Assembly (NCBI GenBank): GCA_030448025.1
Contig: JAUJNQ010000001.1
Coordinates: 544,432 to 608,431 of the forward strand
DNA length: 64,000 bases
Reading direction: 5' to 3'
Source of the DNA: Acidimicrobiales bacterium
Lineage (GTDB): Bacteria; Actinomycetota; Acidimicrobiia; Acidimicrobiales; GCA-2861595
Each line of letters starts with the position of its first letter. Position 1 is the first letter of the stretch. The position numbers and the translations under genes were made by a program. Shown in pieces: positions 20,308-26,743 of the stretch. The notes beneath the pieces were generated by a model, which was not told where the DNA came from, made no database searches, and saw only the letters and a program-made list of their open reading frames with translations.

Positions 20308-21024
20308 TCAGGCTGTGTCGATGGCGAAGAAGCCCTCGGCGAGCGAGCCGTCGGGGAGGCCCGCCAGGGCGGCCACACCGGCGAACCAGCCTCGGAGGTT
20401 GGACTCCAGGGCAGCCGGGTCGGTGATCTGGCTCTGGTGGCAGCACAGCGCGCCGAGCTTGCGGTCGAACACGGCGGTGATGTCGACGAAGCGGTTGGGC
20501 TCGTGCGGCCCGGCCATGACCCACACCTCGGGGACGGTCCACGCCTCGTAACCCTCCACGGCCAGCTCGGGATGGGCAAAGGAGTTGCGGGCGTCGGGAT
20601 AGACGGCGCACAGCGCCGCCTCACCGGCGGCCAGGTGATCGGGATGGCTGGCATGGACTCGTTGCCAATTGCGCTCGGGTGACGAGCACAGGACACGCTG
20701 CGGGCGTACCCGGCGGATGACGCGGGCGATGTCGCGCCGCAGCTCGATGGAGGCCTGGAGCCGGCCGTCGGGGTAGCCCAGGAACACCACGTCGGAGACG
20801 CCCACCGCCTTGGCCGCCTCCTCCTGCTCCGCCCGGCGGATGGCGGGGATCTGGGCGCGGGGCACGTCGGGGTCGAAGCCTCCGGCATCGCCGTCGGTGG
20901 CGACGCAGTACGTGACTGCGATCCCGGAGTCGGTCCAGGTGGCCACCGTGCCGGCGGCGCCGAAGTCCACGTCGTCGGGGTGGGCGACGACCACCAGGGC
21001 ACGGGTCACCTCGTCTGCCGACAT
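20308..21024 (-). CDS. PIG-L/LmbE-family deacetylase (MshB-like)
   Basis: Contains VVVAHPDDVDFGAAGTVATW and HPDH motifs. Confidence 0.8.
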   Translation of the reverse strand: MSADEVTRALVVVAHPDDVDFGAAGTVATWTDSGIAVTYCVATDGDAGGFDPDVPRAQIPAIRRAEQEEAAKAVGVSDVVFLGYPDGRLQASIELRRDIARVIRRVRPQRVLCSSPERNWQRVHASHPDHLAAGEAALCAVYPDARNSFAHPELAVEGYEAWTVPEVWVMAGPHEPNRFVDITAVFDRKLGALCCHQSQITDPAALESNLRGWFAGVAALAGLPDGSLAEGFFAIDTA

Positions 21025-21046
21025 GGCCGCCGACCCTATCCGCCGG

Positions 21047-21625
21047 ATGGGAGTTCACCCGTACTCACAGCGGTGTAGTTACACTGACGCCATTCAGGGT
21101 CGCCTACTACCGAGCCCGTCCAGCACTCCCAGTTGCCTGGTGGGAGAGACGCTCGTCGTCACCGCCTCCGGCCTGGTGGCCCTGGAGCTGCTCCAGAAGA
21201 TGGCGGTCGCGCGTGACGAGCTCCCTGATGTGCTGTCCTACGACCGCAGGCATGAGCGGTGGGTGCTCCGCCAGATCAACGGGGCCTGGATGGCGGGGCG
21301 CACGAAGCGCCTCGTCGAAGTGCGAAGCGACGGCGGCCAGGTGCTGCGGTGCACGTCCGAGCACCGCTTCCTCACCCGAGAGGTCGGCTGGGCCGAGGCC
21401 CGCGAGCTGCGCCCCGGGGTCTCGCTGCATGGAATGGGCAGGGGGCGGGTGGAGGCGGTCGAGCCCGTCATCGTGGACGACGCCGTCCCCGTGTTCGACC
21501 TCGAGGTCGAAGGCACCCACAACTTCACCGTCACCAACGACGGCTCCGGGGTCGATCATCCCGTGGTAGTCCACAACAGCGGCGGCTTGATCGGTCGGAA
21601 TCCCTTGCGTGGGGCCGGAGCTTAA
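21047..21625 (+). CDS. Stand-alone mini-intein (Hint domain) ORF with minimal flanks
   Basis: The Hint core at 21134-21577 (148 aa) has block A CLVGETLVV, block B LRCTSEHRFL, block F VFDLEVEGTHNFTV and block G VVVHN followed by +1 Ser. Only about 29 aa precede it and 15 aa follow. Start and expression are uncertain. Confidence 0.6.
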   Translation: MGVHPYSQRCSYTDAIQGRLLPSPSSTPSCLVGETLVVTASGLVALELLQKMAVARDELPDVLSYDRRHERWVLRQINGAWMAGRTKRLVEVRSDGGQVLRCTSEHRFLTREVGWAEARELRPGVSLHGMGRGRVEAVEPVIVDDAVPVFDLEVEGTHNFTVTNDGSGVDHPVVVHNSGGLIGRNPLRGAGA

Positions 21626-21724
21626 ATTACAGTCCTGTAGTACTCACCACATCTTGGGGCCCGCCTCATCTACCGACACAACCAGTGGTAGGTAAGGCCT
21701 CAACGAGCAGGAAGGTTACATACC

Positions 21725-24700
21725 ATGGCCATCGCGCCCGAGCGCATGGGAATCGGCATCCGTCGCCACTTCACCACCCCCGGGGTCCATCCCTACGACG
21801 AGGTCACCTGGGAGCGTCGGGACGCTCGCATCACCAACTTCGCCGACGGAAGCGTGGCCTTCGAGCAGCTCGGTGTGGAGGTGCCCTCCACGTGGAGCGT
21901 CAACGCCACCAACATCTTGGCCCAGAAGTACTTCCGCGGCGCCCCCGGCTCGTCCGAGCGGGAATGGTCGCTCAAGCAGGTTGCCGACCGGGTGGCCGAC
22001 ACCATCACCGCTTGGGGCGTGAAGAACGGCTATTTCGTGGACGGCGAGGAATCGGACGCCTTCAATGCCGAGCTCAAGCACCTCGTCGTCAACCAGAAGG
22101 CGGCGTTCAACTCGCCGGTGTGGTTCAACATCGGTGTCCCGGGGCGGAGCCAGCAGGCGTCGGCGTGCCAGCCCTACGACGCCTTGGTGAGCACGCCGGA
22201 TGGCCTGGTGCCAATCGGCAAGCTCGTCGAGGACGGTGCCATTGGAACGAAGGTCTTCGACGCTCGGGGTCTCACCAAGGTAGAAGCGGTAAAGACCAAC
22301 GGCCGAAAGCGCGTCTTGCGCATCCACACCAAGGCGGGGCATGCCCTCGACGTCACCCCCGATCACCTCGTGTGGCGGCGATGGGGTGGAGTGAGCGGCA
22401 GCTTCGTCCCGGCCGGTGATCTTCGACCCAACGACAAGCTGCAGTGGGTCCGTCACCAGAGTCACGGCGCAGGGGAGATCACCTCGCGAGCCGTGGCCGA
22501 GGCTGCCCTTGCCGGATGGTTGCAATCCGACGGCTTCGTGGGCCAGTACGAGGGTACGAACAAGTCGCTCACCATCGAGGCCATGACGGTGAACGACGCA
22601 GAGTACGAGTGGGTGCTATCGGCGATCGACACCGTCTTTCCTGGCGTTCACCGCCACATCAGGCCGGTTGCCACGAAGGACACGTCACTCGACTGCAATC
22701 GGATTCGACTCTACGGCAACGGCCTGTCCCAGTTCGTCGAGACCTGGGGATTGCGGGCACGCGGCGTCGACATGCAGGTCCCGGCCCATCTGTTCACCGC
22801 CCCGCTTCCTGTGGTCGCGGCCTATCTACGCAGCCTGTTCCAAGCGGAGGGCTACGTCTCGTTCAAGCCGAGTTCCTCAGTCATCGGCTTCGACATGATC
22901 TCCGCAGGGATCGTGCGTGGCGCGCAATCCCTTCTCAGTAGGTTCGGGATCTTTTCCCGAGTCCGACTCAAGGCCGATTCACGTCCGAACAGGAAGGACT
23001 GCTGGCACCTGGCCATTCAGAACGTCACCGACCGGTGGACGTTCGCCGACGAGGTGGGCTTCATCGACCCGGTCAAGACGGCCAAGCTGGAAGCGACGTT
23101 CGACATGCCCGGGAGGTCGGCAGGGGATATCAAGCACCTGGAGATCGGCCGCGTCGAAGATCTCGGGGAGATGGAGGTCTATGACATCCAGACCGAGAGC
23201 GGCGAGTACCTGAGCGGCAGCCTCCGGGTACACAACTGCTTCATCCTCTCCGTCGAGGACTCGATGCGCGAGATCCTCAACTGGTACGCCGAGGAGGGGA
23301 TCATCTTCAAGGGCGGCTCGGGCTCGGGGGTCAACCTGAGCAAGATCCGCTCCTCGAAGGAAACCCTCAAGGGGGGAGGAACGGCCTCAGGCCCGGTGAG
23401 CTTCATGCGTGGCGCCGACGCCTCGGCGGGCACCATCAAGAGCGGGGGCACCACCCGCCGGGCGGCCAAGATGGTGATCCTCAACGTCGACCATCCCGAC
23501 GTGGAGGACTTCATCTGGTGCAAGGCCATCGAGGAGCGCAAGGCCCGGGCGCTCCGCGATGCCGGGTTCGACATGGACCTCGACGGCAAGGACAGCTATT
23601 CCATCCAGTACCAGAACGCCAACAACTCGGTGCGGTTGAGCGACGAGTTCATGCAGGCGGTGGTGGACGACGCCGACTGGCACCTGAAGGCGGTCACCAC
23701 CGGCGAGGTACTGGAGACGGTGAAGGCCCGGGACCTGTTCGCCCAGATCGCCAAGGCGGCATGGGAATGCGCCGACCCTGGCGTGCAGTACGACACCACC
23801 ATCAACCGCTGGCACACGCTGCACGCCACGGGCCGGATCAACGGCTCCAACCCGTGTAGCGAGTACCTTAGCGTCGATAACTCAGCTTGTAATCTGGCCA
23901 GCCTCAACTTGCTGCGGTACATGGAGGAGGGGGGCACCTTCGACGTGGAGGGCTTCAAGGCCAGCGTCGAGGTCCTGTTCACGGCCCAGGAGATCCTGGT
24001 CGGGATGTCCGACTATCCCACCGAGAAGATTGATCAGAACGCCCGCCGTTTCCGCCAGCTCGGCATCGGCTACGCCAACCTGGGGGCGCTGCTCATGTCC
24101 CAGGGCATGGCGTACGACTCCGACGACGGGCGGGCCTACGCCGCCGCCATCACCGCCCTGATGACGGGCCAGGCCTACGCCACTTCGGCCCGCACCGCGG
24201 CTCGCATGGGGCCCTTCGCCGGCTACACCGAGAACGCCGAGCACATGCTCCGGGTGCTGCGCATGCACCGCGACGAGGTGGCCAAGGTCGACGAGGAGCA
24301 GGTGCCCACGGAGCTGCTGTCGGCAGCTCAGGAGGTCTGGGACCACGCCGTCGAGGAGGCCGAGCGCCACGGCGTGCGCAACTCCCAGGCCTCGGTTCTC
24401 GCTCCGACTGGAACCATAAGTTTTCTCCTCGACTGTGACACCACCGGCGTGGAGCCCGACCTCGGCTTGGTGAAGACGAAGAAGCTGGTGGGGGGAGGAA
24501 CGATGTCCATCGTCAACCACACCGTGCCCCGCGCCCTACGCCAGCTGGGGTACACCGACGATGACGTGGCCGCCGTCGTCAGCTACCTCGACGAGCACAA
24601 GACCATCATGGGTGCGCCCGCGCTCAAGGCCGAGCACCTGCCCGTCTTCGCCTGCTCCATGGGTGAGAACTACATCCACTACCTCGGTCACGTGCGGATG

Positions 24701-25603
24701 ATGGCCGCCGTGCAGCCGTTCATCTCGGGGGCTCTTTCAAAAACTGTGAACGTTCCCGAGGAGGCAACCGTCGAGGACATCGAGCAGCTCTACCTCGACT
24801 CCTGGCAGATGGGCATCAAGGCGCTGGCCGTGTACCGGGACAACTGCAAGGTGGCCCAGCCCCTTTCCACGGTGAGGAAGGGCACGGCCTCCGACGGCAC
24901 TCCCTCGTCCGAGGCCGAGGCCCACGACCAGGAGCTGGCCATCAAGGTGGCCGAGCTGGAGAAGGCCCTCGACCGCCAGACCGTGGTGGTGAAGCAGCCC
25001 ATCCGCGAGCGCCTGCCCCGCCGGCGCCAGTCGGCAACCTTCGCCTTCCGGGTGGCCGACTGCGAGGGCTACGTCACCGTGGGCGAGTACGACGACGGCC
25101 GCCCCGGCGAGGTGTTCGTGAAGGTGTCCAAGCAGGGCTCCACCCTGGCCGGCGTCATGGACGCCTTCTCCATCTCCATCTCGCTCGGGCTCCAGCACGG
25201 CGTGCCGCTCAAGACCTACGTCCAGAAGTACACCAACATGCGCTTCGAGCCCGCCGGCATGACCGACGATCCCGACCTGCGCATAGCGGCGTCGCTGATG
25301 GACTACATCTTCCGCCGCCTGGCCGTGGACTACCTGGCGCTCGAAGAGCGCAGAGAGCTCGGCATCCTCACCACCGACGAGCGAACCCAGCCCACGCTCC
25401 CGGGCGTGGAGGAGGGCGCCACGCCATCGGAAGGTGTGGTTCACGCACCGGCACCCGAGAGCACGAAGGAGCCGAAGGCGACGAGGACACCGGCGGCAGT
25501 CGGCAAGGACGCCCCCTTCTGCTACTCCTGCGGCGTGGAGATGCAGCGGGCCGGCAGCTGCTACGCCTGCGGGAGCTGCGGCTCCACCAGCGGCTGCTCG
25601 TAG
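21725..25603 (+). CDS. nrdJ: Class II (adenosylcobalamin-dependent) ribonucleotide reductase, intein-containing
   Basis: 1292 aa with FNSPVWFN, (intein)CFILSVEDSM, KGGSGSGVNLS, GSNPCSEY and a C-terminal Cys cluster CYSCG...CYACGSCGS. AGGAAGG lies upstream of the ATG. Confidence 0.95.
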   Translation: MAIAPERMGIGIRRHFTTPGVHPYDEVTWERRDARITNFADGSVAFEQLGVEVPSTWSVNATNILAQKYFRGAPGSSEREWSLKQVADRVADTITAWGVKNGYFVDGEESDAFNAELKHLVVNQKAAFNSPVWFNIGVPGRSQQASACQPYDALVSTPDGLVPIGKLVEDGAIGTKVFDARGLTKVEAVKTNGRKRVLRIHTKAGHALDVTPDHLVWRRWGGVSGSFVPAGDLRPNDKLQWVRHQSHGAGEITSRAVAEAALAGWLQSDGFVGQYEGTNKSLTIEAMTVNDAEYEWVLSAIDTVFPGVHRHIRPVATKDTSLDCNRIRLYGNGLSQFVETWGLRARGVDMQVPAHLFTAPLPVVAAYLRSLFQAEGYVSFKPSSSVIGFDMISAGIVRGAQSLLSRFGIFSRVRLKADSRPNRKDCWHLAIQNVTDRWTFADEVGFIDPVKTAKLEATFDMPGRSAGDIKHLEIGRVEDLGEMEVYDIQTESGEYLSGSLRVHNCFILSVEDSMREILNWYAEEGIIFKGGSGSGVNLSKIRSSKETLKGGGTASGPVSFMRGADASAGTIKSGGTTRRAAKMVILNVDHPDVEDFIWCKAIEERKARALRDAGFDMDLDGKDSYSIQYQNANNSVRLSDEFMQAVVDDADWHLKAVTTGEVLETVKARDLFAQIAKAAWECADPGVQYDTTINRWHTLHATGRINGSNPCSEYLSVDNSACNLASLNLLRYMEEGGTFDVEGFKASVEVLFTAQEILVGMSDYPTEKIDQNARRFRQLGIGYANLGALLMSQGMAYDSDDGRAYAAAITALMTGQAYATSARTAARMGPFAGYTENAEHMLRVLRMHRDEVAKVDEEQVPTELLSAAQEVWDHAVEEAERHGVRNSQASVLAPTGTISFLLDCDTTGVEPDLGLVKTKKLVGGGTMSIVNHTVPRALRQLGYTDDDVAAVVSYLDEHKTIMGAPALKAEHLPVFACSMGENYIHYLGHVRMMAAVQPFISGALSKTVNVPEEATVEDIEQLYLDSWQMGIKALAVYRDNCKVAQPLSTVRKGTASDGTPSSEAEAHDQELAIKVAELEKALDRQTVVVKQPIRERLPRRRQSATFAFRVADCEGYVTVGEYDDGRPGEVFVKVSKQGSTLAGVMDAFSISISLGLQHGVPLKTYVQKYTNMRFEPAGMTDDPDLRIAASLMDYIFRRLAVDYLALEERRELGILTTDERTQPTLPGVEEGATPSEGVVHAPAPESTKEPKATRTPAAVGKDAPFCYSCGVEMQRAGSCYACGSCGSTSGCS
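22166..23236 (+). mobile_element. Intein with LAGLIDADG homing-endonuclease domain inside nrdJ
   Basis: A 357-aa insertion between ...QQASA and CFILSV. It starts CQPYDALVSTPDG and has block B LDVTPDH. Two LAGLIDADG motifs are present (LAGWLQSDGFVG and VAAYLRSLFQAEGYVS). It ends SLRVHN, followed by Cys +1. Confidence 0.9.
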
Positions 25604-25697: not shown

Positions 25698-26743
25698 GTG
25701 CCGCTTTACGAGATCACCGAAAACGGCCTGGTCCGGCACGAGAGTGAGTCCTTCAGCGCTTGAGCTTTACGAGCGGGCGGACCTGCAGCGACCTACGAGG
25801 GACGACATCAGCGTTTTCGACGACCAGCTGCTCGTCGTCGCTGAAGAGTTCGGACAGTGGGAGGATGCCCGAAGGCGGATCGACCTGCTGGCGGTCGACC
25901 GGCACGGTCATCTTGTCGTCATCGAGCTGAAGCGCACCGACGAGGGGGGCACATGGACCTCCAGGCGGTTCGGTATGCGGCGATGGTGTCAGACATGCGC
26001 TTCGAGCACATCGTCGACGCCTTCGCAAACCATGTAGCGAAACATCGGCCTCAAGAGGACATCGACGCTCGCGCGTGAGCTATCTCGACTGGTTGTCCGC
26101 CGGTGAAGATGAGGATGCCGTCATCATCGACGGACGTGCGCATCATCCTCGTTTCGGCTGACTTCGGCCGGGAGATCACCACCGCCGTTCTGTGGCTGAA
26201 CCGCTTCGAGGGCATGGACATTCGATGCGTGCGTCTGGTCCCCTATCGGCTCGACAATCGAGTGCTGCTCGATATCCAACAGGTCCTGCCCCTGCCAGAG
26301 GCGGCCGATTACCAGGTACAGGTCCGGCGGAAACAGAACCAGCAGGAGCGGGTGAGCAGCGGCGGGCGGGACCACACCCGCTATCAGATAGTGGTTGACG
26401 GCGACGCGTTGCCGGAGCAGAAGAAGCGGCACGCCGTCCGGGTGATGGTTCAGCAGTTGGTCGAGCGTGGCGTTCCGCCCGCCTGATCGGCGAGAAGCTC
26501 GGTCCCCGCCGCTTCCGCTCCGTCGTGGGCGAAGCGGGCGACCGGGACGCTCTGGTGGCGGCCTTCCGAGACGCCGACCCCCGTTTCGACCCGGTGCGCT
26601 GGTTCGTCGATTATCCGATCTGCCAGGACGGGCGGACGTGGGTCTTGAGCAATCAGTGGGGTACCCAAACCGAAGGTACCCTCCGTGCTCTCTCTCAGGC
26701 CTTCCCGGCGGCGAAGGTCACGTTTCGGCCTGCTGGTAGCTGA
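25698..26743 (+). pseudogene. PD-(D/E)xK (NucS/RecB-like fold) nuclease-family gene, multiply frameshifted
   Basis: The pieces VPLYEITENGLVRHE..., ...LVVAEEFGQWEDARRRIDLLAVDRHGHLVVIELKRTDEGG, HMDLQAVRYAAMVSDMRFE..., DVRIILVSADFGREITTAVLWLN...DIRCVRLVPY... and ...RWFVDYPICQDGRTWVLSNQWG lie in different frames. Breaks occur near 25750, 25944-25949 (G6), 26070, 26135 and 26475. GC looks lower than in the flanks. Confidence 0.65.

Follow-up and report, generated by a model that had tools for sequence, protein, structure and literature searches.

A mini-intein gene without a host protein, kept by purifying selection beside nrdJ in a small clade of Acidimicrobiia

What is an intein doing where there is no protein for it to interrupt? 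The question is raised by an open reading frame (ORF) in a stretch of 64,000 nucleotides from an Acidimicrobiales bacterium (GenBank assembly GCA_030448025.1, contig JAUJNQ010000001.1, positions 544,432 to 608,431). We call this whole stretch the window, and coordinates refer to it unless another locus is named. The ORF lies on the plus strand at 21047..21625. An initial annotation, made from the sequence alone, placed it between a PIG-L deacetylase gene and nrdJ and described it as a complete mini-intein (residues 30-177) with almost no exteins. The ORF is present and both flanking genes are as named. The first is a divergent neighbor outside the unit described here, a PIG-L family deacetylase gene (20308..21024, minus strand; Pfam PF02585 at 1e-29). 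The second, nrdJ (21725..25603, plus strand), encodes a class II B12-dependent ribonucleotide reductase and holds a 357-amino-acid LAGLIDADG intein. We find that the ORF is a protein-coding gene under ordinary purifying selection. On sequence comparison it is very probably a selected, stand-alone intein gene derived from an intein of nrdJ.

The Hint (mini-intein) core comprises 148 codons, from Cys1 to Asn148 (21134..21577, plus strand). Direct checking of the coordinates puts Cys1 at 21134-21136, His-Asn|Ser at 21572-21580 (the bar marks the splice junction), Asn148|Ser+1 at 21575-21580, and the stop codon at 21623-21625. Three intein models score above their cut-offs, and the first block assignments proved correct. 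Pfam Intein_splicing (PF14890) gives 36.7 bits against a gathering score of 35.8 over residues 30-177 of the ORF as first drawn. TIGR01445 (intein_Nterm) gives 40.8 bits against a cut-off of 24.5 (residues 30-110), and TIGR01443 (intein_Cterm) gives 20.0 bits against 15.6 (residues 148-177). The residues of a class-1 intein are all present in the window: Cys1, TxxH, the Asp and His of block F, His-Asn, and the +1 Ser. Searched against solved structures, the Hint family profile matched a BIL domain (2LWY) at 3e-10 and the Mtu RecA mini-intein at 4e-8. An AlphaFold2 (AF2) model of the ORF has predicted local distance difference test (pLDDT) values of 78-94 in the core and low confidence in the flanks. 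The top Foldseek matches for this model are 2LWY and the Ssp DnaB, NrdJ-1, and RecA mini-inteins, with target-normalized template-modeling scores of 0.7-0.8; the mini-intein structures are matched at E values of 1e-9 to 1e-6. As the initial annotation had stated, the element has no endonuclease domain. Nor is it a copy of the intein 0.6 kb downstream; it is unrelated to this 357-amino-acid LAGLIDADG intein in nrdJ (22166-23236). No Rfam family matched over 20800-21900 at E values up to 1.

The claim that the Hint domain lacks a host gene also holds beyond the window. Our protein search covered a collection of 5.8 billion proteins, with clusters formed at 90% identity. It gave 26 clusters of stand-alone proteins of 153-185 amino acids, 64-86% identical, from Acidimicrobiales and Actinomycetota metagenome bins, as well as a nrdJ fragment with a homologous intein (P0027). 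DNA was available for 13 distinct stand-alone loci: the window, L001-L004, L072, L152-L154, L156, L158, L159, and L161. They stem from independent NCBI, JGI, and ENA assemblies, and the metagenome scan added at least two stand-alone loci. No host protein surrounds the Hint domain in the window, where the flanks are 14 and 15 amino acids long, or at any of the 13 loci. Relatives carrying a full-length intein-containing gene at this position would have marked the ORF as a plain deletion remnant. The opposite was found: the relatives carry the same stand-alone gene. At all 13 loci nrdJ starts 51-142 nt downstream of the Hint gene, on the same strand. A Hint-nrdJ fusion by read-through or frameshifting was considered and rejected, because these stop-to-start gaps occur in all three phases and the frame is not continuous.

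The gene on the 5' side is variable. It encodes PIG-L in most loci, is decayed in L156, and is absent from L152 and L159/L160. In L002 (7255-7964) PIG-L is broken by a frameshift, and in L156 (5135-5511) only fragments of it are left; the adjoining Hint gene is intact in both. The Hint gene thus outlives its neighbor.

Is the element still a working gene? From Cys1 through Ser+1 it spans exactly 149 codons (447 nt) at every one of the 13 loci, free of indels and uninterrupted by stops or frameshifts, and its flanks cannot be aligned among the same loci. The ratio of non-synonymous to synonymous substitution rates (dN/dS, Nei-Gojobori) over the Hint core of the 13 loci has a median of 0.23 and a range of 0.09-0.42 at dS of ~0.3-0.8, where dS is approximate given a genome of 69% G+C. 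Variable sites at the first, second, and third codon positions number 66, 54, and 121. An antisense ORF (21107-21574) was rejected as the coding frame, as the most variable position, the third of the Hint codons, would be its position 1. In comparisons of the same genome pairs, the median dN/dS is 0.21 for the Hint core, 0.12 for the nrdJ N-terminus, and 0.18 for PIG-L. The ratio is also low, 0.15-0.23, among loci without a canonical start codon.

These values bear on the simplest alternative, a neutral relic: the decaying last piece of a deleted, intein-containing copy of nrdJ that has no function now. An origin from a nrdJ intein is supported, as set out below. The exteins have shrunk to unconserved stubs, five loci (the window among them) have no canonical start upstream of Cys1, and the closest outgroup has no such gene. 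A decaying piece would nevertheless have to stay free of indels, stops, and frameshifts over 447 nt in 13 loci, although dS reaches 0.4-0.8 and the flanks have become unalignable. It would also have to keep a dN/dS of about 0.2, equal to that of the neighboring genes, with variation mostly at third positions, even where a canonical start is lacking. The selection data already largely refute a neutral relic, which we regard as very improbable, and purifying selection on the ORF rules out a plain deletion remnant. The suggestion in the initial annotation that this might be the last surviving piece of a deleted gene therefore fits the origin of the element and not its present state, which is one of purifying selection and vertical inheritance.

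The catalytic residues were counted over 31 distinct sequences. T74, H77, and D122 are present in all 31, N148 and Ser+1 in 30 each, and Cys1 in 21 of the 21 sequences whose N-terminal region is known. Ser+1 is encoded by both AGC and AGT. For comparison we used the homologous mini-inteins that interrupt nrdJ itself at NPC|SEY, the catalytic loop of NrdJ (residues 711|712 of the window protein). At similar identity, these in-gene inteins have dN/dS values of 0.14-0.27. The stand-alone Hint core and its splicing residues are thus constrained about as strongly as inteins that must splice from NrdJ.

The NPC|SEY mini-inteins also point to where the gene came from. They are found in L005-L016, L023, L074-L084, L088, L090, and L153, that is, in Acidimicrobiia and other Actinomycetota. 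By sequence, the Hint domain of the window appears to be a paralogue of this mini-intein, which sits at a different nrdJ site and was missed in the initial annotation. The two kinds are 41-54% identical, have no endonuclease, and are similar in size (148 amino acids in L153). They share the blocks C(L/F)VGET…, RCTPEHRFL, V(Y/F)DLEVEGTHNF, and VVHN|S, and Pro-2 and Ser+1 are retained. When L153 is set aside, the in-gene copies are 41-51% identical to the window Hint domain and mostly 152-154 amino acids long, with a maximum of 174. The NPC|SEY site of the window itself (23855-23860) is empty, and nrdJ reads GSNPCSEYLSVDNSAC there without interruption.

All trees were built by neighbor joining only. 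In 200 of 200 bootstraps the stand-alone sequences group together; their clade is nested within the NPC|SEY mini-inteins, and its plurality sister (67 of 200 bootstraps) is the 148-amino-acid in-gene intein of L153. This genome has both a stand-alone and an in-gene copy, which are 52% identical in an ungapped alignment, and mutual exclusion of the stand-alone gene and an NPC-site intein was rejected on this ground. The stand-alone genomes are monophyletic in the tree of the nrdJ N-terminus as well, and Hint identity is correlated with nrdJ identity (r = 0.77). The gene has been inherited vertically with nrdJ. The closest outgroup, L164, is 91% identical in the nrdJ N-terminus and has no stand-alone gene; in the next outgroups nrdR or an unrelated gene lies upstream of nrdJ. 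We infer that the simplest history is a single duplication of the nrdJ promoter and intein, loss of the exteins from the copy, and then vertical descent. An ancestor of this small Acidimicrobiia clade would have duplicated the NrdJ-loop mini-intein along with the nrdJ core promoter. The copy would then have lost its extein coding sequence, leaving a layout of promoter, few codons, intein, few codons, and nrdJ promoter.

The catalytic loop of NrdJ (23843-23893 in the window; compared with L001, L004, L072, L152, L154, L158, and L153) is an intein hot-spot. One residue upstream of the mini-intein site, at NP|CSEY, there is a 398-amino-acid intein in L001, L004, L072, L152, L154, and L158. The NPC|SEY region is empty in the window, L002, and L156. 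C-extein residues +4 to +6 go with the occupant of the site: mostly MH(L/V/I) next to the mini-intein at NPC|S and (L/M)S(V/I) next to the large intein at NP|C. Of the three empty sites, two have MSV and one has MFL. The pattern suggests co-adaptation of intein and extein. A third occupied site is seen in the nrdJ genes of L154, L155, and L156, which have a further large intein from about residue 937, at …APTG|CLVGGTL…SHN|TISFLL…. The 357-amino-acid LAGLIDADG intein of the window (22166-23236, plus strand; …QQASA|C…RVHN|C…) is absent from all 10 of the other stand-alone-clade nrdJ genes that were read in the N-terminal region (…SSACFI…, …ASACFI…, …AAACFI…), and by sequence it looks like a recent gain in the window lineage.

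How would a gene made in this way be expressed? A promoter-like element lies at 21054..21097 on the plus strand (TTCACC...CTCACAGCGGTGTAGTTACACTGACGCCATTCAG), with the -10-like hexamer TACACT at 21080-21085. Within the motif GTAGTTACA(C/A)T, GTAGTTACA is unchanged in 13 of 13 loci. In nhmmer searches the element occurs only upstream of Hint genes, and the window holds no further copy of the motif. A simple scan of 20900-21800 found no consensus sigma-70 promoter and no intrinsic terminator, and the promoter assignments rest on comparative conservation. The 40-nt Hint element aligns in one register with the nrdJ promoters of some relatives (TTGACA..TGTAAT), at 20-25 of 36 positions. In the best comparisons, with nrdJ of L001, L002, L163, L164, L017, and L013, at most 1% of shuffled sequences reach the observed score. 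Several other nrdJ promoters, including that of the window, align with it no better than shuffles. The comparison is suggestive of a diverged copy of the nrdJ core promoter. No NrdR operator of at least 10 bits is present in the Hint promoter.

The best candidate for the start codon is a conserved AT[T/G/C] codon (21092..21094, plus strand), which follows TACACT by 6 nt in 13 of 13 loci. Such spacing corresponds, as far as sequence can tell, to the geometry of a leaderless actinobacterial mRNA. The codon is ATG in L152 and L153 and ATT in the subclade of the window. Clusters P0011, P0015, and P0019-P0025 begin with MQ.. or MR.., the same N-terminal form as in L152 and L153. From this codon to Cys1 the window has 14 codons, (I/M)QGRLLPSPSSTPS, which we read as a vestigial N-extein (21092..21133, plus strand). 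The interval keeps the frame and has no stop at any of the 13 loci. It occurs in nine spacer lengths (4-36 codons), which requires at least eight indel events, every one a multiple of three. The N-flank is 5-37 codons long among relatives, and only Pro-2 (synonymous CCC/CCG) and an N, D, or S at -1 are conserved. In L154 (5890-6000), and likewise in L155, it has grown to 37 codons through a TCG-TCG-CGG (SSR) repeat and is still in frame. Pro-2 and residues 1-7 vary synonymously with the amino acids kept, and the TGC of Cys1 is invariant at all 13 loci. Together these features argue that Cys1 is translated, also in the ATT lineages. Starts preceded by a Shine-Dalgarno sequence lie in frame upstream of Cys1 in L003, L004, and L158, and an in-frame ATG or GTG lies upstream of it in L072, L156, and L159.

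The ATG at 21047, with which the ORF was first drawn, precedes the promoter-like element, and just one other lineage (L072/L073) shares it. Its position and poor conservation make an N-flank of 14 amino acids more likely than one of 29. The true N-flank probably begins at the conserved ATG/ATT codon (ATT 21092 in the window), and ATG 21047 would not be the start. Of the flank lengths first given, the 15 amino acids on the C-terminal side stand, and the 29 on the N-terminal side probably do not. The peptide 'HPYSQRCSYT', which the conserved upstream motif would encode, was rejected as a translated N-terminus. In L159 a stop directly precedes the motif, and in L161 and L153 stops lie 7 and 4 codons upstream of it, with no ATG, GTG, or TTG between.

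At the other end, the +1 Ser, the vestigial C-extein (SGGLIGRNPLRGAGA), and the TAA stop occupy 21578..21625 (plus strand). Ser+1 is kept and the remainder cannot be aligned. Among relatives the C-flank is 7-29 amino acids long including Ser+1, and it overlaps the nrdJ promoter. We place the putative nrdJ core promoter at 21605..21633 (plus strand), with a -35 element TTGCGT (21605-21610), a 17-nt spacer, and a -10 element TACAGT (21628-21633). This is a consensus reading; relatives show TTGACA at the position homologous to the -35 element of the window. The only conserved C-flank endings, 'GP*' and 'EITVL*', are the translated -35 and -10 region of nrdJ, and the constraint on them is thus at the DNA level.

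These flanks bear on another suggestion of the initial annotation, a precursor of a spliced peptide of about 44 amino acids. Splicing or cleavage would then serve to make a short bioactive peptide from both flanks, and ligation of the two is what the complete splicing apparatus, with its conserved +1 nucleophile, would achieve. However, the flanks share neither sequence nor length beyond Pro-2 and Ser+1 (5-37 amino acids on the N-terminal side, 7-29 on the C-terminal side), the two conserved endings reflect nrdJ promoter DNA, and the C-flank merely runs into that promoter. The flanks are too variable for such a product, and we consider a peptide precursor extremely unlikely.

Between the nrdJ -10 element and its ATG there is a putative NrdR-type pair of operator boxes (21645..21691, plus strand): CACCACATCTTGGGGC, a 15-nt linker, and ACACAACCAGTGGTAG. 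All 13 loci keep box 1, and the arrangement is 16+15+16. It matches the published NrdR architecture of two 16-bp boxes, 15-16 bp apart, near the transcription start (PMC13584703; PMC9110341). Neither the 64-kb window nor the stand-alone loci yielded a nrdR gene, whereas in relatives from outside the clade nrdR lies directly upstream of nrdJ; in L162 the order is lexA, a hypothetical gene, nrdR, nrdJ.

With two promoters arranged in this way, the Hint ORF might be a selfish or structural passenger. It would be part of the nrdJ transcription unit and be translated to avoid polarity, its upstream NrdR-free promoter would feed nrdJ, and the protein itself would be useless. The gene always sits just before nrdJ and points the same way, the scan showed no terminator between the two, and the promoter resembles a copy of the nrdJ promoter without NrdR boxes. 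Polarity, however, selects against stops and frameshifts and not against missense changes, which leaves dN/dS of about 0.2 unexplained. The invariant catalytic residues are likewise unexplained, as is the lack of in-frame indels in the core next to indel-rich flanks. A passenger of this kind seems unlikely to us.

The best explanation as a whole, and one we think reasonably probable, is an independent gene that is maintained by selection and encodes only a class-1 mini-intein. Several points weigh against it. Two histidines of the splicing machinery are not invariant: the penultimate one (H147) is kept in 25 of 31 sequences and replaced in 6, and that of block F is kept in 23 and replaced in 8. 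The AF2 confidence is low for the C-terminal strand that bears His-Asn. The clade is small, and metagenome assemblies are the source of every relative. The loci were gathered by a search with Hint, so losses within the clade could be missed. A functional link to NrdJ is a speculative one, drawn from gene linkage alone, and we know of no biochemical role for a freed mini-intein. Finally, there is the start codon. The window, L001, L002, L154, and L161 have no ATG, GTG, or TTG from the conserved codon (ATT) to Cys1, a leaderless start in mycobacteria works only with ATG and GTG and not with ATT (PMC4633059), and gene callers place the start of the window protein (P0001) beyond Cys1, at GTG 21140.

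The start-codon points would suit a Hint-fold protein that begins at or after codon 3 (GTG 21140), has no Cys1, and does not splice, perhaps retaining only C-terminal cleavage at Asn. Gene callers start 11 of the 26 family members at or after codon 2-3, and the only canonical start upstream of Cys1 in the window is the unconserved ATG 21047. Codon 3 itself is GTT, GTC, or GCC in L001, L158, and L161, however, and so provides no conserved start. A protein without Cys1 would also leave no reason for the synonymous variation at codons -2 and 1-7, for the invariant TGC, or for an N-flank frame kept through at least eight indel events. It disagrees with the Shine-Dalgarno-led starts before Cys1 in L003, L004, and L158 and with the ATG at the conserved codon in L152 and L153. 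We hold such a truncated protein to be improbable.

Expression and processing of the gene might proceed as follows. Transcription would start from the NrdR-box-free promoter copy and give an mRNA that is leaderless or nearly so, and translation would begin at the conserved ATG/ATT codon. As no terminator was found before nrdJ, the Hint transcript may read through into nrdJ. The precursor, with flanks of 14 and 15 amino acids, would undergo an N-S acyl shift at Cys1, attack by Ser+1, and cyclization of Asn148, releasing the Hint domain plus a short, unconserved peptide. Selection acts on each residue that the four splicing steps require, and this extends to the +1 nucleophile, whose only use is in ligation. 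We infer from this that the precursor splices itself, and on the sequence data we lean towards a Hint protein that self-processes. Since the flanks are not conserved, the selected product would be the Hint domain or the reaction itself and not the ligated peptide.

What would the cell gain from this? One proposal is a domesticated intein, a mini-intein that left its host protein, turned into a separate gene, and is retained because its autoprocessing chemistry serves some function in the cell; the position at nrdJ suggests a link to ribonucleotide reduction. We regard this proposal as evenly poised between right and wrong. The remaining suggestion of the initial annotation, a free Hint protease or ligase, may also apply. 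We propose a role connected with NrdJ, given that the gene stays next to nrdJ at every locus and that its intein would stem from the NrdJ active-site loop. An accessory, sensor, or regulatory role of this kind is, speculatively, the most likely class of function, and the narrower claim that the Hint protein acts on or with NrdJ is a doubtful one.

The element does not fall easily into any known class. By sequence, fold, and ancestry it is an intein, but it fails the operational criterion of being embedded in a host protein. The in-gene NPC|SEY mini-inteins are embedded in an essential enzyme that becomes active only once they have spliced, whereas the window Hint domain is hostless and is encoded outside nrdJ, behind a promoter and start of its own. 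The HO endonuclease gene of Saccharomyces, which descends from the VMA1 intein, stands free, and is kept for a host function, is the nearest conceptual precedent. Like the window gene, it is intein-derived and outside any host protein. HO works through the LAGLIDADG endonuclease that it retains and has lost splicing, whereas the window protein has no endonuclease and all of its splicing residues are under selection.

BIL domains resemble the window protein in having a HINT fold, probably in autoprocessing, and in not being homing elements, and the best structure match, 2LWY, is a BIL domain of Clostridium thermocellum. BIL domains of the A and B types are embedded in regions of variable sequence in larger bacterial proteins that are themselves not conserved, and they depart from inteins in the C-terminal motif or the +1 residue (PMC7765530). 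Unlike these, the window protein has no larger partner, a canonical HN|S junction, and nrdJ-intein ancestry. The pretoxin HINT (PT-HINT, PF07591) modules of polymorphic toxins show a weak profile similarity of 26.5 bits, below the Pfam gathering threshold of 27.7. Unlike PT-HINT, the window element comes with neither a toxin or delivery domain nor an immunity gene; after the Hint domain there are just 15 unconserved residues, and the locus is that of a housekeeping ribonucleotide reductase.

An exhaustive HMMER search of 1.84 billion cluster representatives gave one stand-alone representative, P0012, among the best 150 of 1425 matches. No other stand-alone relatives were found among those 150. 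Four of the other 149 were read: two are inteins in longer proteins, and two are contig-end fragments, one of nrdJ and one without a start codon. Almost all of the rest are 300-3000 amino acids long, as expected for embedded inteins. P0290 and P0294, considered as further stand-alone relatives, are both fragments and were rejected. The searchable literature returned nothing relevant on free-standing, stand-alone, orphan, or domesticated inteins, and we found no earlier description there of a selected stand-alone mini-intein.

Two features of the surroundings are recorded here. On the minus strand, at the PIG-L start codon (21022-21040), TAGGGT is found ~8 nt upstream, and L003 and L004 have TAGTGT. 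From its sequence, PIG-L may also be nearly leaderless, with two divergent promoters back to back within ~60 nt. On the 3' side of nrdJ (25744-26486) the window has several short overlapping ORFs with a weak match to NERD (17.8 bits, below the cut-off of 22.1). L156 has an intact NERD gene of 309 amino acids after nrdJ, on the opposite strand, and the window copy may be a disrupted gene.

Inteins are generally seen as selfish elements that persist only because an imprecise deletion would ruin the essential protein they sit in; it has long been asked whether a host ever gains from them. In the stand-alone gene there is no host protein and that protection is absent, yet the splicing domain and its catalytic residues are conserved. 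The gene offers a natural setting in which to test what an intein can do without a host protein. It also provides a compact intein of 148 amino acids that works, or once worked, with almost arbitrary short exteins.

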